From assembly GCA_001761425.1 (NCBI GenBank), contig CP012986.1, positions 660,001 through 692,000 on the forward strand: a DNA stretch of 32,000 bases, in the 5' to 3' direction. The notes beneath the pieces are model-generated. The model did not search any database. It was not told where the DNA came from and was given only the letters and a program-made list of their open reading frames with translations. Made by a program: the position numbers and the translations under genes. Within the stretch, counting starts at the first letter, position 1. Each line of letters opens with the position of its first letter. The stretch is from Candidatus Saccharimonadota bacterium (GTDB taxonomy: Archaea; Nanohalarchaeota; Nanosalinia; Nanosalinales; Nanosalinaceae). Of this stretch, positions 3,605-24,093 are shown one piece after another.

Positions 3605-4510
3605 ATGGTTGAGTATTTTAAATCGGATCAGCTGTTCGATGCTGATGAGCTGGACAGTAAGAAGATCAAGGCCTTAGATGATGATACCAGGCTGGAGATC
3701 ATGAAACTTCTTTCCAGGGAGCCGGGCTATCCTTCAGAAGTCGCAGAAAACCTTTCAGTCTCGAAGCAGAAGGCTTACTATCATTTCCAGAAGCTGGAAG
3801 AGGCAGGCCTTCTACAGGAGTTGAGAAGCGAAAACGTTTCTGGAGGACAGGCAACGTATTACTCTCCGACAGCAGATGGTTACATACTTGATCTGGGAAA
3901 CACTGGGAGGCCTTTCCATCTTCCTGAGCGTAAAGGCCCTGTAATCGATTTTTTGCATCCTCTTGTGGAGGAAGGGGAGTTGAACGGGAGTATTGTCGTC
4001 GGTTCACCGGATCAACATGGGCCTGATCAGGTACGCGCTCGTGACGGTCATCTTGCTGGCGAAGCTGCCCTGAAGCTGGGCAAGTATACGGATACGGATG
4101 AAGAGCTAGTGAGGCTTGATACCGAGATCGTCAGAGATGACCATTTCGACCAGAATTTCCTTCTGATCGGCGGCGTCCTTACGAATACCTTGACGAAGAA
4201 GTTCAACGAGGCTTTTCCCGCAAAGTTTTCGGGACAGGAGTTTCCGTACAGGGAGATCTCGACGCCAGAGTCAACCTACACCGAGGATAATATAGGCCTT
4301 GTAGCTAAAGCAAGGCATCCAGACAAGCTGGGTAAGACACTGTTCCTGGTTGCTGGCGTAAGAAATGCTGGAACCCTGGCTGCGGTCAGAGCCTTCAAAA
4401 ACCTGGAAACTCTAATTCAGGGATACGAGGGAGGAGAGTTTTACAAGGTAGTCCGCGGCCTTGACCTCGATGGGGACGGGGAGATAGACGACTTTGAGGT
4501 TGTAGAATGA
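3605..4510 (+). CDS. winged-helix (ArsR/TrmB-style) HTH protein with unrecognised C-terminal domain of about 200 aa
   Basis: N-terminus LDDDTRLEIMKLLSREPGYPSEVAENLSVSKQKAYYHFQKLEEAGLL is a typical wHTH. The stop overlaps the next start (ATGA at 4507-4510). Confidence 0.7.
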   Translation: MVEYFKSDQLFDADELDSKKIKALDDDTRLEIMKLLSREPGYPSEVAENLSVSKQKAYYHFQKLEEAGLLQELRSENVSGGQATYYSPTADGYILDLGNTGRPFHLPERKGPVIDFLHPLVEEGELNGSIVVGSPDQHGPDQVRARDGHLAGEAALKLGKYTDTDEELVRLDTEIVRDDHFDQNFLLIGGVLTNTLTKKFNEAFPAKFSGQEFPYREISTPESTYTEDNIGLVAKARHPDKLGKTLFLVAGVRNAGTLAAVRAFKNLETLIQGYEGGEFYKVVRGLDLDGDGEIDDFEVVE

Positions 4511-18068: not shown

Positions 18069-18911
18069 ATGGATCGCAGGATTGGAGCTCACGTTTCTAT
18101 TTCTGGGGGAGTTGAGAAAGCTGTAAATCGTCAGGAGGATGCTGGAGGTAACTGTGGACAGATCTTTGCAGGGTCTCCAAGGACCTGGAAGGTCTCCAGT
18201 TATGAGGAAGAGGAGGGAGAAAAGTTTCATGAACTCCGTGGTGAAGGCGATCAGAACCCGTATGTTATCCATTCGACGTATCTTGTGAACCTGGCGACTC
18301 CAAAAGACGATCTGTTTAGAAAATCTCTGAAATGCCTTCAGGAGGAACTTGAAGCAGCTGGAAAACTGGGTGTAGAATACGTTGTATTCCATCCAGGTTC
18401 TCACACAGGGTCCGGGAGAGAAAACGGGATCGAAAGAATAGCAGAAGGCCTCGACGAACTGGATATACCGGAGAACGTTACACTGCTTCTGGAAAATACT
18501 GCCGGGAAAGGTACTACACTAGGCAAATCCATGGGAGAGCTGAGACAGATGATGGAAGCAACAGATACAGACAACGAAAAAATCGGGGTCTGCATCGATA
18601 CCTGTCACGCACACGCAGCAGGATACGAACTTAGAGAACAGGAAGGATTTGAAGATTTCATCCAGGAGATCAAAGAGGACTTGGGCCTTGAAAATCTCAA
18701 AGTTTTGCACCTGAACGATTCGAAGGATGAGAAAGGAAGCGAGAAAGATAATCACGAGCATATTGGAGAAGGTAATATAGGCCTTGACGGTTTCAGGAAC
18801 GTGGTTAACTCCGAGGCCCTGAAGAAAAAGCCTATGGTGCTGGAGACTCCTGTAGAGGATGATAAAGGTTACAGGGAGAATATCGAGGAGTTGAGAGGCC
18901 TTATCGAGTAG
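18069..18911 (+). CDS. nfo: endonuclease IV (AP endonuclease, deoxyribonuclease IV)
   Basis: MDRRIGAHVSISGG, YVVFHPGSH, LLENTAGKG, CIDTCHAHAAGY, HLNDSK and LETP are the Nfo/TIM-barrel metal-ligand blocks. The ATG at 18069 is preferred to the track start 18027. Confidence 0.93.
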   Translation: MDRRIGAHVSISGGVEKAVNRQEDAGGNCGQIFAGSPRTWKVSSYEEEEGEKFHELRGEGDQNPYVIHSTYLVNLATPKDDLFRKSLKCLQEELEAAGKLGVEYVVFHPGSHTGSGRENGIERIAEGLDELDIPENVTLLLENTAGKGTTLGKSMGELRQMMEATDTDNEKIGVCIDTCHAHAAGYELREQEGFEDFIQEIKEDLGLENLKVLHLNDSKDEKGSEKDNHEHIGEGNIGLDGFRNVVNSEALKKKPMVLETPVEDDKGYRENIEELRGLIE

Positions 18912-18929
18912 AGGCCTTTTATCTACTGG

Positions 18930-18943
18930 TTTTTTTCTTTTTT
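18930..18943 (+). terminator. oligo-T tract after nfo
   Basis: TTTTTTTCTTTTTT begins 19 nt after the nfo TAG stop. Confidence 0.35.
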
Positions 18944-19042
18944 CTGTATTTTCGCCAGTGTGCTTTTAAGGCTCGTGTACTCTTTTTTTGTTGGAAAGTA
19001 AATTTCCGTTTGACGAATTATGATTCTATGAGGTTATAAAGA

Positions 19043-19543
19043 ATGTCTAATATCCACAGAAATCAGAGAGTTGGCGTCTTTGTGGACGTCCAAAATATGT
19101 ACTACAGTGCGAAAAATCTTTACAGTTCGAAAGTTGACTTCGAGAAGCTTCTTGATTCAGCTGTTATGAACAGGGATCTTGTCAGGGCTTCAGCTTATGT
19201 TATTCAGGCTGAGACTCCGGATGAGAACAACTTTTTTGAGGCCTTGAGGAAGATTGGTTACGAGGTCGAGATCAAGCAGTTGAAGGAGTTTTACGGCGGT
19301 GAGAAGAAAGGTGACTGGGATCTTGGTATGACAGTTGATATGATCCAGCAGGCGAAGAAACTGGATACTATTGTCCTGGTTACCGGTGATGGTGACTTTG
19401 CGGTTCTTGTCGATCATTTGAAGTCGATGGGTTGTCGTGTCGAGGTCATGAGTTTCGGAAGAAGTTCAGCTAAAGAACTGCGTGAATCAGCTACAAACTT
19501 CATCGATATGGATGATAAATCCGACAAGTTCCTGGTAGACTAG
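19043..19543 (+). CDS. NYN domain (LabA/DUF88-like) putative RNase
   Basis: 166 aa. VGVFVDVQNMYYSAKN and LVTGDGDFAVLVDHLKSMGCRVEV are the conserved acidic blocks of NYN/LabA proteins. GAGGT lies 8 nt upstream of the ATG. Confidence 0.8.
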   Translation: MSNIHRNQRVGVFVDVQNMYYSAKNLYSSKVDFEKLLDSAVMNRDLVRASAYVIQAETPDENNFFEALRKIGYEVEIKQLKEFYGGEKKGDWDLGMTVDMIQQAKKLDTIVLVTGDGDFAVLVDHLKSMGCRVEVMSFGRSSAKELRESATNFIDMDDKSDKFLVD

Positions 19544-19552
19544 AGAGATAAG

Positions 19553-20722
19553 ATGGCACGTGCACGTGAGATATCGGCGAAAAACATAATGGAGGAAAAC
19601 CCGTTCACAGTCGGAGCCGACCAGAGGATCTCCCAGGTCAGGGACAAGATGGAGAACAGGAACCTGAGAGCTGTCGCAGTTACAGACGAAAAGAACAGGA
19701 TCCAGGGAGCTATCAGCTATAGAGACCTGATCCGTCAGATCCAGTTCAATCCTGAAAAGACCAAGCTCAAGAAAGTTATGCATACACCTCCAACTTTCGA
19801 GGCCTCGGATTCTCTTATTGATCTAGCGGAACTCAGGATTAACTCCGGTAGAAAACTCCTTGTCGCTGAAGAAGGAGAAAAGCTGAAAGGGATAGTCGGC
19901 GATGAACAGTTCAGATCTGCTGTGCTTGAAGCAGACGAGATGGAGAATATCTCGACGAGAGATCTGGCGACCTACGAGGTTATCGAGGCCTTTGAGGATG
20001 ATTCAATTGAGGAGGTCAGGCACAAAATGCTTGATAACAATATTTCCCGTGTCCCGATTCTTGACGGTGACGGGAACCTGGTCGGTGTTCTCAGGAGTAC
20101 AGACGTGCTTGGCACTATGATCAGTAGAGAAGGCCAGAACTCTGGTGGAACGTCAGGAGACTCGCTTAAAGATACCAGGATCGCTGGAGGGAATGAGAAA
20201 AGAGAGATGTCCAGTGTAAAAGTCTCAGAGATAATGAGCAGGACTCCTACGACTTATGAAGGCCATTTCTCAGGTAGGGAAGCTATCCAGCTAATGCAGG
20301 ACAGAGAGAGCCACGAAGTTATTATAGTAGACGATAAGTATCCTGAAGCAGTTATCACTGTCAAGGATTTCATCAGGGAGCTTTCCGACATGGAGATCGG
20401 GAACGCAGTCCTTGTTAATCTTGTAGGCCTTGATGTAGCCGAGGAAAAAGCTGCTGTCCATGATAAAATCAAGACACAGATCCAGGGTTCTCTGGGCAGG
20501 AAGCTTGAAAATCCTCAGGAGATCACTCTCCGTGTCAAGAAATCGGAGAAAGACGGGAAAAAACACAGGTATGAAGTCACCCTGAAGCTTTTCTCGGACC
20601 TGGGCCAGTTTACAGTTAATGAGGAGGCCTGGGACCTGCTTGAGGTAGTTGATTCTTCACTTGAGCAGTTGAACGCCCAGGTCAGGAAGAAAAGAGAGAA
20701 GAGAAAGGATCACAGGTACTAG
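19553..20722 (+). CDS. four-CBS-domain protein with C-terminal HPF/RaiA (S30AE)-like domain
   Basis: Four CBS repeats are readable (res about 5-60, 70-125, 135-190, 225-285). The last 100 aa or so (VNLVGLDVAEEKAAVHDKIKTQI..ITLRVKK..YEVTLKL..FTVNEEAWDLLEVVDSSLEQLNAQVRKKREK) follow the b-a-b-b-b-a pattern and spacing of bacterial HPF/YfiA. Confidence 0.75.
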   Translation: MARAREISAKNIMEENPFTVGADQRISQVRDKMENRNLRAVAVTDEKNRIQGAISYRDLIRQIQFNPEKTKLKKVMHTPPTFEASDSLIDLAELRINSGRKLLVAEEGEKLKGIVGDEQFRSAVLEADEMENISTRDLATYEVIEAFEDDSIEEVRHKMLDNNISRVPILDGDGNLVGVLRSTDVLGTMISREGQNSGGTSGDSLKDTRIAGGNEKREMSSVKVSEIMSRTPTTYEGHFSGREAIQLMQDRESHEVIIVDDKYPEAVITVKDFIRELSDMEIGNAVLVNLVGLDVAEEKAAVHDKIKTQIQGSLGRKLENPQEITLRVKKSEKDGKKHRYEVTLKLFSDLGQFTVNEEAWDLLEVVDSSLEQLNAQVRKKREKRKDHRY

Positions 20723-21078
20723 TTGCCTATCTCCTGTTTTTCCATTTTTTCCATCTTATCTTTTTCTGACATACCGTACTTGTCCGAAAGTTTCTTGAAC
20801 GACATGACACTCCACATCAGGTAGACGAACACGAAGATCAGTGCCAGGTAAAGCGGATACCGTGCTACTGCAACTCCTCTGAAGGCGGCGTTGTATACTC
20901 CCCAGTAACCTATGTATATTACTAGGACACCGATTACAAGAAGCAGTCTCTGCGAGAACTCCCTGAGAACGTTCTGTTCAAGTTTCTTCCGTGCATTCCA
21001 AACGATAAAGAAGCTGATAAGGCCTATGCTTAAAGTAAGTGATGTATTGATTGATAGGAGGGTTAAATTTACCGCCAT
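20719..21078 (-). CDS. small 3-TM membrane protein (related layout to the 11286/17233 families)
   Basis: 119 aa. TM1, a charged loop (ARKKLEQNVLREFSQR), TM2, TM3 and a K/E/M-rich tail. Its stop shares CTAG with the convergent CBS gene. Confidence 0.65.
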   Translation of the reverse strand: MAVNLTLLSINTSLTLSIGLISFFIVWNARKKLEQNVLREFSQRLLLVIGVLVIYIGYWGVYNAAFRGVAVARYPLYLALIFVFVYLMWSVMSFKKLSDKYGMSEKDKMEKMEKQEIGN

Positions 21079-21109
21079 GAACTTGAATTATTTTGCCTCT
21101 CTTAAATAA

Positions 21110-22267
21110 TTACTCAGTCTGGATTTCGATAATTCTCACCTTCATATCCTCCGGTAACGAATTCCTGAACACGGTCTCATTATGATCTCCTACAACCATT
21201 ACTCTTACCTGACTGTCCCTGAACTCGACGGAGACAAGATCATCGCTGAAAAAGGCCTGGGCGTCCTTCCTGATCTCCTGTTCGCTACTGTATCCCTGAT
21301 AGTCCTGGAAAGTAGTATAGCCTATCGGAGCGATAAAAACCAGTAGAATAATCAGGGCGATAGGAACAGTCTTCCTCAACTTATCAGCTTCCTTCTGCTT
21401 GTAATAACTTGTCGGAGAAAGGCCTATCACCTTGAAAGAAGCGTAACCGGAGATTAGCACAGCCAGGATATTGATAGCAGCGATTGAGGAAGCATGAAGT
21501 GCGTAAACCGGATTTTGTATTCTGAGGCCTATACCTGAAGCAGCTAGAGGAGGTACAAGTGCTACAGCAACTGCGACGCCTGCGATCTGGTCTCTGAAAC
21601 CTGTTGCGAATGTGAATGCGGCTGCTGCACCGACAAGGAATGAAAGTATTATTACAGGGAAGCCGAAAGATACTATAGTCTGTAGAGCCGGGTTCATGGT
21701 CACTGGGAACGGTAGTACAGCTATGTATGAGATTGCTATAGCCAGTAAAAAGCTCATAAGGCCTGATACAAGACTTTTCTTCATCAGTTTGCTGTCGCCG
21801 ATCACCATGGAGATCGCTCCTGATACTAGAGGTGAGAGCATCGGAGCAAGCATCATCGCACCTATGACGACTATTAAATTGTTGATTATAAGTCCGTAGG
21901 CTGCTATAGCTGATGAGAGGCCTACTAAAGCCCATTGGGCTTTTGAGAAACCTGAGAATTCCTGGGCCTTGCTGTAGATCTCTTCCTGTGAGAGCAGGGA
22001 TGCTGAGCCTTTGGTTTTCTGTCCTTTTTCTATCAGGCTTTCCTGTTCCAGTACTCTGATATAAAGGTCTCCTGACTCGATATCTGTCTCCTTGAGGTCT
22101 TCAGTAAGCTCGTCTATTTCGTCATCGTCGACTGTAGCTGTGAACTCTATTACTTCTGTTCCCTGTTTTTCCGCTTCGTTAGAAGTTATGTCGTTGGTGT
22201 ACTGGTCGAGTACTTCGTCGACTTCGCCGTCGAATTCCTCGGGAACAGTTATCTGTACCTGTCTCAC
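21110..22267 (-). CDS. DUF389 / TIGR00341-type integral membrane protein
   Basis: 385 aa with GTG start. MRQVQITVPEEF plus an acidic soluble N-domain, followed by about six hydrophobic segments and a C-terminal soluble part. This is the typical DUF389 layout. Confidence 0.65.
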   Translation of the reverse strand: MRQVQITVPEEFDGEVDEVLDQYTNDITSNEAEKQGTEVIEFTATVDDDEIDELTEDLKETDIESGDLYIRVLEQESLIEKGQKTKGSASLLSQEEIYSKAQEFSGFSKAQWALVGLSSAIAAYGLIINNLIVVIGAMMLAPMLSPLVSGAISMVIGDSKLMKKSLVSGLMSFLLAIAISYIAVLPFPVTMNPALQTIVSFGFPVIILSFLVGAAAAFTFATGFRDQIAGVAVAVALVPPLAASGIGLRIQNPVYALHASSIAAINILAVLISGYASFKVIGLSPTSYYKQKEADKLRKTVPIALIILLVFIAPIGYTTFQDYQGYSSEQEIRKDAQAFFSDDLVSVEFRDSQVRVMVVGDHNETVFRNSLPEDMKVRIIEIQTE

Positions 22268-22299: not shown

Positions 22300-24093
22300 C
22301 TATGCCCTGACCTTCAGTCTGCCTGACTCGTTTGCACCGATGACTCTGTTCGCAAGCTCCGATTTCTTCGTCAGCGAGATGTCGCCACTCTTTCCCACAG
22401 TCGCTGTGAAGAGAAATTCGTCTCCTTCATAGATATCGACCTCGGTACCGGATTTTTCCTCTCCGACATCGATGATGACAGAGTTACCTTTCTCACTGAG
22501 TTCAAAGCTGATCTCGCCTTTACTTGTAGGCGTATTCGGCTCAACTGTAATATCAAGGCCTAACTCATCTTCAAGACGGTCTATGTTCTCACCGCCTTTC
22601 CCGATGACATGGGAGATCTCGTCCTCCGAAACCATCAAACGGATATGATTGTCGGAGATGAATTCGATTACAGGATCATCTACACGGGAACCGAGCTGTT
22701 GCTGGAGTTTCTCACGTGCCAGTCTCTGTGCGCCTGTTTCTTCCTCTGAATCAGTAACAGGGACGACAACAGTCTCCTCACCGTAAGTGTAGACCTCGTA
22801 CTGCGGGGCATCGTCCTCAAATCTGGAGATCTGGATGACAGGCCTTGCCAGGTCCTCCTCTGTCATTCCCTGGGGAACCTTGACAACCAGCTCGAGTTTG
22901 TATACTTCTTCGATCTGTGCGTCCTTGATGAAGACAACGGTATCACAGACCTGGGGAATCATACCAAGTTCTACTCTTCCGATTAATCTTTGAACTGCGT
23001 CGACAGCCTCTGAGGCGTGGACAACACCGATCATTCCCACGCCCGCCATACGCATATCCGCAAATACCTCGAAATCATCAGTTTTCCTTACCTCATCGAA
23101 GACAGTGTAATCAGGTCTCGCAAGCAAGAGGAAGTCGCCTGTATCCTCCATCGAATCCTCAAGGCCTTTGTACTGGGTGATATCTGCACCTACATCAAGG
23201 TCTCGCGGGTTCTCCATCGTCTTCACGACCTGCCCGTTGTCGCTGTAATACTCCGCAAGTGCCTGAGAAAAAGTCGACTTACCGTGGCCCGGTGCACCCG
23301 CGACCAGGATTCCTTCCGCTTCTGTCTTCAGACGTGTCAATAACCCATCGCTCATATCATAATCATCAAGGGTAACCTTGGCGACAGGCCTTACAGCCGT
23401 GATCTCCGCTGCTTCGGAGAACGGAGGCCTTGTCATTGCGATCCTGTATTCTCCTAGCTGGATGACTGTTGCACCTTCTTTCTCCATCTCCACCAGGCCT
23501 TTACCGCTCATCTCTGCTTTCTCTACGGTTTCGTCCATCAGGCTGTACATTTTCTCTCTTGTAAGTACGTCTTTTCCGATATCTTCTAGTTCGAACTCTC
23601 CTGGAAGGCCTCTTTTCGCTTTCGGCTTTGAACCTTCTTTCAGGTGGACACTCATCGTTTTGTCGTCAAAATACTGTTCCAGGGAGAAATCTAGGTCGGT
23701 TTCTGTCTTGAACTCTCTGACTTCGATACCTTTAGCTCTTGCAATTTTTCCCTGGACTGCGTCAGCGGTGAAGAGGGTGGCGTCCATCTCCTCTGCCATG
23801 TCTCTGATCAGTGCGTCGATCCTGCCGTTGTGAGAGAGTTCTATCTCCTCTGTCGTGGGTTTGCGTCCCTCAAAGCTCAGGTTGAGGCCTTCTCTTTCTG
23901 CGAGCATCCTTATTTTTTTGATCTCCTCGATGCCTCTGTAACCTGTCTCTTTTCCTTCGTTGGCCTGGTTCTCTAACTCGTCTACGACGAACTCCGGGAT
24001 TACTATATCTGTCTTGGTTTCTCCTCTCTCAATAAGTTCTGAGAGTTTGCCGTCTATGATGATGGATGTATCAGGGACGATTTTTTCTGTCAT
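22300..24093 (-). CDS. PIN domain - PilT-like ATPase - KH domain protein (COG1855-type)
   Basis: 597 aa. N-terminal PIN (VPDTSIIIDG ... FTADAVQ), Walker A GAPGHGKST, Walker B-like DYTVFDEVR and C-terminal KH (VIGKGGENIDRLEDELG). Confidence 0.85.
   Translation of the reverse strand: MTEKIVPDTSIIIDGKLSELIERGETKTDIVIPEFVVDELENQANEGKETGYRGIEEIKKIRMLAEREGLNLSFEGRKPTTEEIELSHNGRIDALIRDMAEEMDATLFTADAVQGKIARAKGIEVREFKTETDLDFSLEQYFDDKTMSVHLKEGSKPKAKRGLPGEFELEDIGKDVLTREKMYSLMDETVEKAEMSGKGLVEMEKEGATVIQLGEYRIAMTRPPFSEAAEITAVRPVAKVTLDDYDMSDGLLTRLKTEAEGILVAGAPGHGKSTFSQALAEYYSDNGQVVKTMENPRDLDVGADITQYKGLEDSMEDTGDFLLLARPDYTVFDEVRKTDDFEVFADMRMAGVGMIGVVHASEAVDAVQRLIGRVELGMIPQVCDTVVFIKDAQIEEVYKLELVVKVPQGMTEEDLARPVIQISRFEDDAPQYEVYTYGEETVVVPVTDSEEETGAQRLAREKLQQQLGSRVDDPVIEFISDNHIRLMVSEDEISHVIGKGGENIDRLEDELGLDITVEPNTPTSKGEISFELSEKGNSVIIDVGEEKSGTEVDIYEGDEFLFTATVGKSGDISLTKKSELANRVIGANESGRLKVRA

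Follow-up and report, generated by a model that had tools for sequence, protein, structure and literature searches.

The 32,000-nucleotide (nt) stretch analysed here (the window; positions 660,001 to 692,000 of contig CP012986.1) contains two adjacent plus-strand genes that form the subject of this report (Table 1). The first codes for a LabA-like NYN-domain protein, a putative endoribonuclease, and the second for a protein of 389 amino acids (aa) in which four CBS domains are followed by a C-terminal tail of the HPF/RaiA type. Because of this architecture, a full-length homology to the characterised archaeal factor HibA and the presence of a loop typical of its family, we file the 389-aa protein under HibA/AHA. 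The gene is very probably the nanohaloarchaeal ortholog of this ribosome hibernation factor, which is widespread in archaea, and the second cistron of a NYN–HibA operon in the core Nanohaloarchaea. A preceding interpretation made from the DNA letters alone (the sequence-only reading) had described two plus-strand open reading frames (ORFs) with a 9-nt spacer, an upstream gene of the NYN/LabA type, four CBS domains ahead of the tail, and a resemblance of the tail to HPF/S30AE that was judged by eye. These elements held up, the ORF coordinates included.

Pfam searches recovered PF00571 (CBS) in four stretches of the 389-aa protein (E 1.7e-36) and PF02482 (Ribosomal_S30AE) at aa 300-385, scoring 28.1 bits when the full protein was searched and 31.8 bits when the tail was searched by itself, both above the gathering cut-off of 23.7 bits. 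The full-length AlphaFold2 model, for which 31 homologs were available, reached a mean predicted local distance difference test score (pLDDT) of 81, with values mostly between 84 and 95 in the CBS tetrad, where two Bateman pairs are visible; a model of the tail alone reached 80.5. Both models predict the same succession of elements in the tail, with strands and helices lying where the by-eye comparison had named them: β1 at 287-291 (VNLVG), α1 at 296-317, β2 at 323-333, β3 at 337-348, β4 at 351-359 and α2 at 362-388. A Foldseek search with the full-length model was dominated by CBS-tetrad matches, the top ones (E 1e-18 to 1e-15) being ribosome-bound SriA (9znf_4, E 1.4e-18), SriD, Dri and AMPK-gamma; the HPF relationship was not visible in that search, and neither 9sr9 nor 9l96 was among its matches. 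The structural relationship to HPF comes from a separate Foldseek run with the tail-only model against the PDB, in which the top 36 matches were all HPF/RaiA/YfiA/pY chains, plastid pY included (best E 2.3e-6; TM-scores of up to 0.75 for the query and up to 0.81 for the target). The agreement of the predicted tail fold with HPF/RaiA/pY is far beyond chance. Within the CBS tetrad, the glycine-rich loop of the CBS3 region aligns with residues ~190-207 of Pyrococcus abyssi HibA. Its residues 192-217 have pLDDT values below 50 and are predicted to be disordered, and two of its glycines, G199 and G213, are invariant across the nanohaloarchaeal and haloarchaeal homologs. Conservation also extends to VLRSTD184 and VITVKD272, the h-h-[T/S]-x-x-D motifs in the last two CBS domains, a finding consistent with nucleotide binding.

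The family assignment is carried by a sequence search of the PDB, in which P. abyssi HibA (9sr9_H, 392 aa) matched at E 3.9e-21, with query residues 28-389 collinear with chain residues 25-380; a haloarchaeal-type chain of 406 aa (9l96_a) and related entries were likewise recovered (E 8.8e-15 for 9l96_a, query 25-383). Chain H is common to 9SR9-9SRF/9T7H, and 9SRE is the reference structure of P. abyssi HibA on the ribosome, termed HibA-PTC (PMC13324472). We found 228 homologs of the 389-aa protein at E<=1e-5, several of which carry the Joint Genome Institute (JGI) label 'CBS domain-containing protein/ribosome-associated translation inhibitor RaiA'. The nearest named homologs are those of Ca. 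Nanohalobium sp. (80% identity) and N. constans (59-60%), which marks the window's organism as a nanohaloarchaeon.

The same architecture was named HibA by Madru et al. (Nat Commun 2026; preprint October 2025; PMC13324472) and AHA by Souza et al. (bioRxiv February 2026; PMC12934967), and it was also recognised in the paper on the Sri factors (PMC13454478). The family is present in ~40-47% of archaeal genomes (PMC13324472, PMC12934967); the statement in the sequence-only reading that HPF-type domains are mainly a bacterial and plastid feature is therefore outdated. In cryo-electron microscopy (cryo-EM) structures, the HPF/RaiA-like domain at the C-terminus is bound in the small-subunit mRNA/tRNA channel and the CBS tetrad, attached to the large subunit, covers the tRNA sites, with the A, P and E sites occupied; the third CBS domain extends its long loop into the peptidyl-transferase centre (PTC). 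These factors inhibit translation; in deletion mutants 70S ribosomes or ribosomal proteins are lost, and recovery from stationary phase is poor or late (PMC13324472, PMC12934967). Full-length homology to a family whose function has been established experimentally (PMC13324472, PMC12934967) makes the earlier proposal that the CBS–HPF fusion is an archaeal hibernation factor correct. It is also already known: at least two groups have independently published the family, with structures and genetics, and a third has noted it. The AHA study included the Ca. Nanohalobium homolog A0A5Q0UFT2 among its search queries (PMC12934967), and our literature search on Nanohaloarchaeota and hibernation returned no papers. 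The use of a CBS nucleotide-binding module joined to an HPF domain as an archaeal ribosome silencer is an important discovery that is already in print, and the present locus adds an ortholog in a clade already surveyed.

Table 1. Features of the NYN–HibA locus and its surroundings, in window coordinates
Feature	Position	Strand	Basis or remark
NYN / LabA-like (COG1432-type) putative endoribonuclease gene, 166 aa	19043..19543	+	PF01936, 2qip_A
Intergenic spacer AGAGATAAG, 9 nt, NYN stop to HibA start	19544..19552	+	read directly
HibA/AHA-family ribosome hibernation factor gene, 389 aa plus stop	19553..20722	+	full-length homology
N-terminal CBS tetrad, two Bateman modules, aa 1-283	19553..20401	+	PF00571, AlphaFold2, Foldseek
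Gly-rich extended loop in CBS3 region, aa 192-222, equivalent to the HibA 'PTC loop' / AHA 'loop 3'	20126..20218	+	alignment, pLDDT
C-terminal HPF/RaiA-like tail	20405..20719	+	PF02482, tail-only AlphaFold2 model, Foldseek
TATA-box-like element CTTTTAAG, candidate promoter of the NYN–HibA pair, ~75 nt 5' of NYN start	18963..18970	+	upstream alignment
T-rich run tttttttcttttttct, ~20 nt past the AP-endonuclease stop, 5' of the TATA-like element	18909-18945		sequence read
119-aa ORF, apparent membrane protein, without Pfam match	20719-21078	-	convergent; 4-nt overlap with HibA stop codon
597-aa PIN + PilT/T2SSE-type ATPase + KH-domain protein, predicted to act on RNA	22300-24093	-	

Compared with HibA proper (P. 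abyssi PAB0961 and Thermococcus barophilus TERMP_00697; PDB 9SR9-9SRF, 9T7H; PMC13324472), the window protein is collinear over its residues 28-389 at ~24-26% identity to the P. abyssi protein, with a loop ~11 residues longer and a tail that is without 7 residues before β2 and nearer to the bacterial profile. The Pfam S30AE model accepts the window protein together with many of its nanohaloarchaeal homologs, whereas the haloarchaeal and Thermococcales-type homologs examined show CBS only, including a Thermococcales-type homolog (L097) that is 85% identical to P. abyssi HibA. Haloarchaeal AHA is the same family under another name, and a profile with the window protein among its members retrieved it; it shares ~17-25% identity with the window protein and has a longer loop 3. 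With the bacterial and plastid HPF/RaiA proteins (YfiA, pY; PF02482, TIGR00741) the tail shares its fold, at a query TM-score of ~0.66-0.75, and, by homology to HibA/AHA, probably the binding site on the small subunit. It differs from bacterial HPF, which stands alone or carries the long-HPF dimerisation domain, in that a CBS tetrad is joined to it and in its longer C-terminal helix. The coupling of a CBS tetrad to ribosome silencing, as in HibA, also characterises the CBS-tetrad-only factors SriA-D (Methanosarcina acetivorans), Dri (Pyrobaculum) and ARC-A/ARC-P (Methanolobus), and Foldseek places the N-terminal module of the window protein structurally nearest to SriA (9znf_4), SriD (9zng_7) and Dri (9e7f_3). 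Unlike HibA, the Sri, Dri and ARC factors lack an HPF domain, and some of them act as pairs from CBS-only operons (PMC13454478).

Several observations weigh against the assignment of the window gene to this family and to an operon. First, the protein misses the cut-off of 40.9 bits of TIGR00741, the NCBIfam equivalog for HPF/YfiA (22.1 bits with the full protein and 25.7 bits with the tail as query); the tail is a domain homologous to HPF that falls outside this bacterial equivalog. Second, its identity to the two structurally characterised homologs is only 21-26%, and ribosome binding with blocking of the mRNA/tRNA sites has been seen with the P. abyssi and Haloferax volcanii proteins only, none being nanohaloarchaeal (PMC13324472, PMC12934967). 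Third, the 7-residue segment before β2 (alignment columns 342-348) is absent from the nanohaloarchaeal tail and present in the P. abyssi and haloarchaeal proteins, and the ribosome contacts may therefore differ. Fourth, AMP and ATP were without clear effect on HibA–ribosome binding in vitro (PMC13324472), which leaves the step in which an energy sensor switches the ribosome off unproven. Finally, co-transcription of the gene with NYN is indicated by spacing only.

By homology, the 389-aa protein would be expected to bind the ribosome and to bind or sense nucleotides. If it acts as its homologs do in the cryo-EM structures, the HPF/RaiA-like tail would lodge in the small-subunit channel for mRNA and tRNA, the CBS tetrad would span the A/P (or P/E) tRNA sites of the large subunit, and the Gly-rich loop would extend into the PTC. 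Jointly, these three elements would keep an idle 70S ribosome in one piece, stop it from translating and guard its rRNA against nucleases in starvation or stationary phase. Adenine nucleotides, AMP in preference to the others, are the most likely ligands of the CBS tetrad: P. abyssi HibA has dissociation constants of 12 µM for AMP, 65 µM for ADP and 113 µM for ATP, the site being the CBS3/CBS4 interface (PMC13324472), and AHA was observed with two bound AMP molecules (PMC12934967). The sequence-only reading had argued that the fusion couples ATP/AMP levels directly to translation shutdown. The fusion of a CBS module to an HPF domain stands, and the published authors propose a like coupling, but the direct control by ATP/AMP goes further than the behaviour of P. 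abyssi HibA supports (PMC13324472). The HibA authors propose a nucleotide-regulated sequestering partner (PMC13324472); ATP-triggered release has been reported solely for the CBS-only ARC system and not for HibA.

In the NYN protein, the PF01936 domain covers the full length of the sequence (profile positions 1-145 of 145, E 1.9e-39), and the LabA-like structure 2qip_A (Vibrio parahaemolyticus VPA0982) matches it from one end to the other (E 1.1e-30). The protein belongs to the LabA-like group (COG1432 / PF01936), has a single domain, without OST-HTH, and keeps all the conserved acidic motifs, which are invariant in the ortholog alignment: D15 (VDVQN), D91/D93 (GDWD) and D116/D118 (GDGDF). It falls outside the archaeal NYN family TIGR00288, scoring 18.7 bits against a cut-off of 178.45. 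When the window was compared with seven other nanohaloarchaeal loci (L001, L002, L007-L011), the identity of NYN to its orthologs, at 82-92%, was by far the highest in the neighbourhood, against 71-75% for the apurinic/apyrimidinic (AP) endonuclease, 66-77% for the PIN-ATPase-KH protein, 45-60% for HibA and 47-56% for DUF389. That no gene nearby is conserved as strongly suggests that NYN has an essential housekeeping function.

Beyond the Nanohaloarchaea, orthologs of this NYN at 50-60% identity occur in other DPANN archaea, in Thermoplasmatota, in a few haloarchaea and in many Patescibacteria (Candidate Phyla Radiation, CPR). The sharing of the subfamily by DPANN and CPR suggests strong constraint on its sequence and possibly inter-domain transfer. 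The bacterial orthologs come mostly from Patescibacteria/CPR. In 29 of 42 loci they immediately follow rpsO (uS15), and in 16 of these 29 pnp (PNPase) lies further downstream in the same orientation, at a distance within 1.5 kb in 13 cases. The rpsO–pnp pair is a classical operon with an RNA-decay and ribosome context. In those 16 loci NYN is inserted into it, and this context indicates a role of the bacterial orthologs in RNA turnover. Examples of the rpsO–NYN arrangement are L021, L042, L044, L053, L061, L066, L075, L077 and L078, where NYN occupies positions ~4001-4500 and is 53-57% identical to the NYN of the window. In other archaea the neighbours of NYN are mixed (thioredoxin, a malic-enzyme-like protein, a methyltransferase with uL15, zinc ribbons), and a recurrent ribosome or hibernation theme was looked for among them and not found.

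The junction between the two genes is tight throughout the core Nanohaloarchaea. By our own ORF calls the spacer ranges from -4 to +12 nt in nine loci, and the called gaps in three further loci (L134-L136) are 6, 6 and 42 nt, the HibA start in the 42-nt case being probably called too far downstream. A Shine–Dalgarno-like GGTG(A) is present at the junction in L001, L002, L007 and L009; in L008 and L010 the stop and start codons overlap. The junction alignment held no conserved internal TATA- or promoter-like element, its conservation being only at the coding level. Upstream of NYN, in contrast, an alignment of eight nanohaloarchaeal loci showed a sole conserved block, CTTTTAAG, which reads TTTTAA or TTATAA with T18967 and A18969 invariant and which we infer to be the promoter of the pair. 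A scan for sigma-70 promoters and intrinsic terminators gave no terminators; as these models are inapplicable to archaea, it was replaced by the comparative alignment. The short gaps and overlaps, the TATA-like element 5' of NYN and the lack of any such element inside the junction support a maintained bicistronic unit that is probably translationally coupled; the pair would probably be transcribed from the TATA-like element. The HibA, AHA and Sri papers mention neither the NYN nor the gene context. The pairing in the core Nanohaloarchaea is unreported and is the sole new element of this locus.

We then traced the pairing in other genomes. First, NYN lies directly upstream of HibA in all 12 core Nanohaloarchaea examined (the window, L001-L003, L007-L011 and L134-L136). 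The shared neighbourhood comprises the AP endonuclease, NYN, HibA, DUF389, the PIN-ATPase-KH gene and NrdR. The interval between the AP endonuclease and NYN is variable, with insertion of an HhH-GPD gene, of an SBF transporter plus another ORF, or of a 108-aa ORF; so is that between DUF389 and PIN-ATPase-KH, where the inserts include Exo_endo_phos. The small membrane ORF or DUF389 is lost in some core loci, while the NYN–HibA junction stays. Second, neither of two basal Nanohaloarchaeota has the adjacency, their order being HibA(+)-DUF389(-)-NYN(+) in L012 (290-4495) and L014 (841-4507). Third, NYN is not next to AHA in any of three haloarchaeal loci (L004, L005, L006), nor does it occur within 4 kb of HibA in 23 Thermococcales-type metagenome loci retrieved with P. 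abyssi HibA as the query; the immediate neighbours of HibA in L097, one of these, are a methionine aminopeptidase upstream and a DUF835 protein (Pfam). Fourth, with the NYN as the query against species-representative genomes, we collected the 80 best loci; the 73 of them outside Nanohaloarchaeota (31 archaeal, 42 bacterial) were searched with HibA-derived hidden Markov models, with jackhmmer and with E. coli HPF and RaiA queries, and none had an HPF or CBS–HPF gene near NYN. Thus, with adjacency in every core genome and in none of the basal, haloarchaeal, Thermococcales-type and other NYN loci, NYN–HibA is a lineage-specific operon. The sequence-only reading had seen in the two genes a two-component module; their adjacency stood in the core clade, and the notion of a general module did not.

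The wider survey also gave two observations on the surroundings of HibA. The convergent HibA/DUF389 adjacency goes deeper into the Nanohaloarchaeota than the NYN–HibA operon does. Haloarchaeal AHA (5001-6218 in L004-L006) stands among Usp genes, with seven of them within 11 kb in Natronorubrum aibiense (L005) and one each in L004 and L006.

This distribution bears on how the pairing should be understood. We lean, by a little, towards its being an inherited gene order without a specific link between the two products, in which NYN is a housekeeping RNA-processing enzyme and HibA shares its transcript in a clade with compact genomes. The synteny of the whole neighbourhood in Nanohaloarchaea, the small and gene-dense genomes, the restriction of the pairing to one clade, the widely differing evolutionary rates of NYN and HibA seen in the identities above, and the heterogeneity of NYN neighbours in other archaea all fit such an inherited order. 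Yet across the 12 genomes, in which HibA is ~45-60% identical to that of the window, the flanks rearrange and the junction never does, and because the spacers are short, co-expression at least appears to have been maintained.

The invariance of that junction despite gene gain and loss on both sides is the chief observation in favour of a functional coupling of the two proteins, for which we see perhaps one chance in a few. NYN would degrade mRNA or unprotected rRNA on entry into dormancy (or trim and clear it on exit) and the co-expressed HibA would protect assembled ribosomes from it; alternatively, NYN could itself be the sequestering partner postulated for HibA (PMC13324472). The Shine–Dalgarno-like or overlapping junctions hint at coupled translation, and translationally coupled or overlapping gene pairs often encode subunits of complexes (PMC10666635). 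The catalytic acidic residues of NYN are intact, its bacterial orthologs sit in the rpsO (29 of 42) and pnp (16) context of RNA decay and the ribosome, and hibernation factors protect ribosomes from endogenous RNases, as stated in the introduction of the Sri paper (PMC13454478). Set against this are the absence of the adjacency in the basal Nanohaloarchaeota, the haloarchaea and the Thermococcales-type loci and of any HPF or CBS–HPF gene near the archaeal and bacterial NYN orthologs; moreover, nuclease activity has been demonstrated for no member of the LabA-type NYN group (PMC5499597). It is in this doubtful range that we also place the broader scenario in which the core Nanohaloarchaea recruited HibA into a translationally coupled operon with NYN, the two acting either as nuclease and ribosome protector or within a complex under nucleotide regulation, and so controlling RNA clearance and ribosome preservation in host-dependent dormancy.

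Were NYN and HibA to cooperate, archaeal ribosome hibernation would be linked to a specific RNase, and a role would be found for a large, uncharacterised nuclease family; the pairing of nuclease and protector, if true, would provide the first functional handle on the LabA-type NYN family. The lead that remains is a hibernation factor locked to a very conserved NYN in ultra-small, host-dependent archaea, and a rpsO–NYN–pnp arrangement in bacteria that belong mostly to the ultra-small CPR.

The combination of a nuclease effector with a CBS sensor might also suggest an anti-phage defence or toxin–antitoxin-like module, which we regard as highly improbable. The NYN matches the generic PADLOC model 'LabA-like protein, NYN family nuclease' (E 1.9e-15, domain only), and the CBS region gives a weak, partial NCBIfam match to DS11_antiphage, with 45.8 bits against a cut-off of 260. 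However, HibA has no PADLOC match and is a full-length homolog of a hibernation factor, both genes occupy a fixed chromosomal position among housekeeping genes across the clade, and the NYN is conserved to a degree that is unlike defence genes. On these grounds the defence-module reading was rejected.

Some further features accompany the pair. A T-rich stretch (18930-18945) precedes the TATA-like element downstream of the AP-endonuclease stop; the longer T-rich run of which it is part fits an archaeal oligo-T terminator that would part the AP-endonuclease gene from the NYN–HibA unit. No Rfam families were found at 18500-21500. The 119-aa convergent ORF that overlaps the HibA stop codon is present in L007, L008, L010, L011, L134 and L136 and absent in L001, L002 and L135. 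The PIN-ATPase-KH gene is kept near NYN–HibA in most of the nanohaloarchaeal loci that reach that far.

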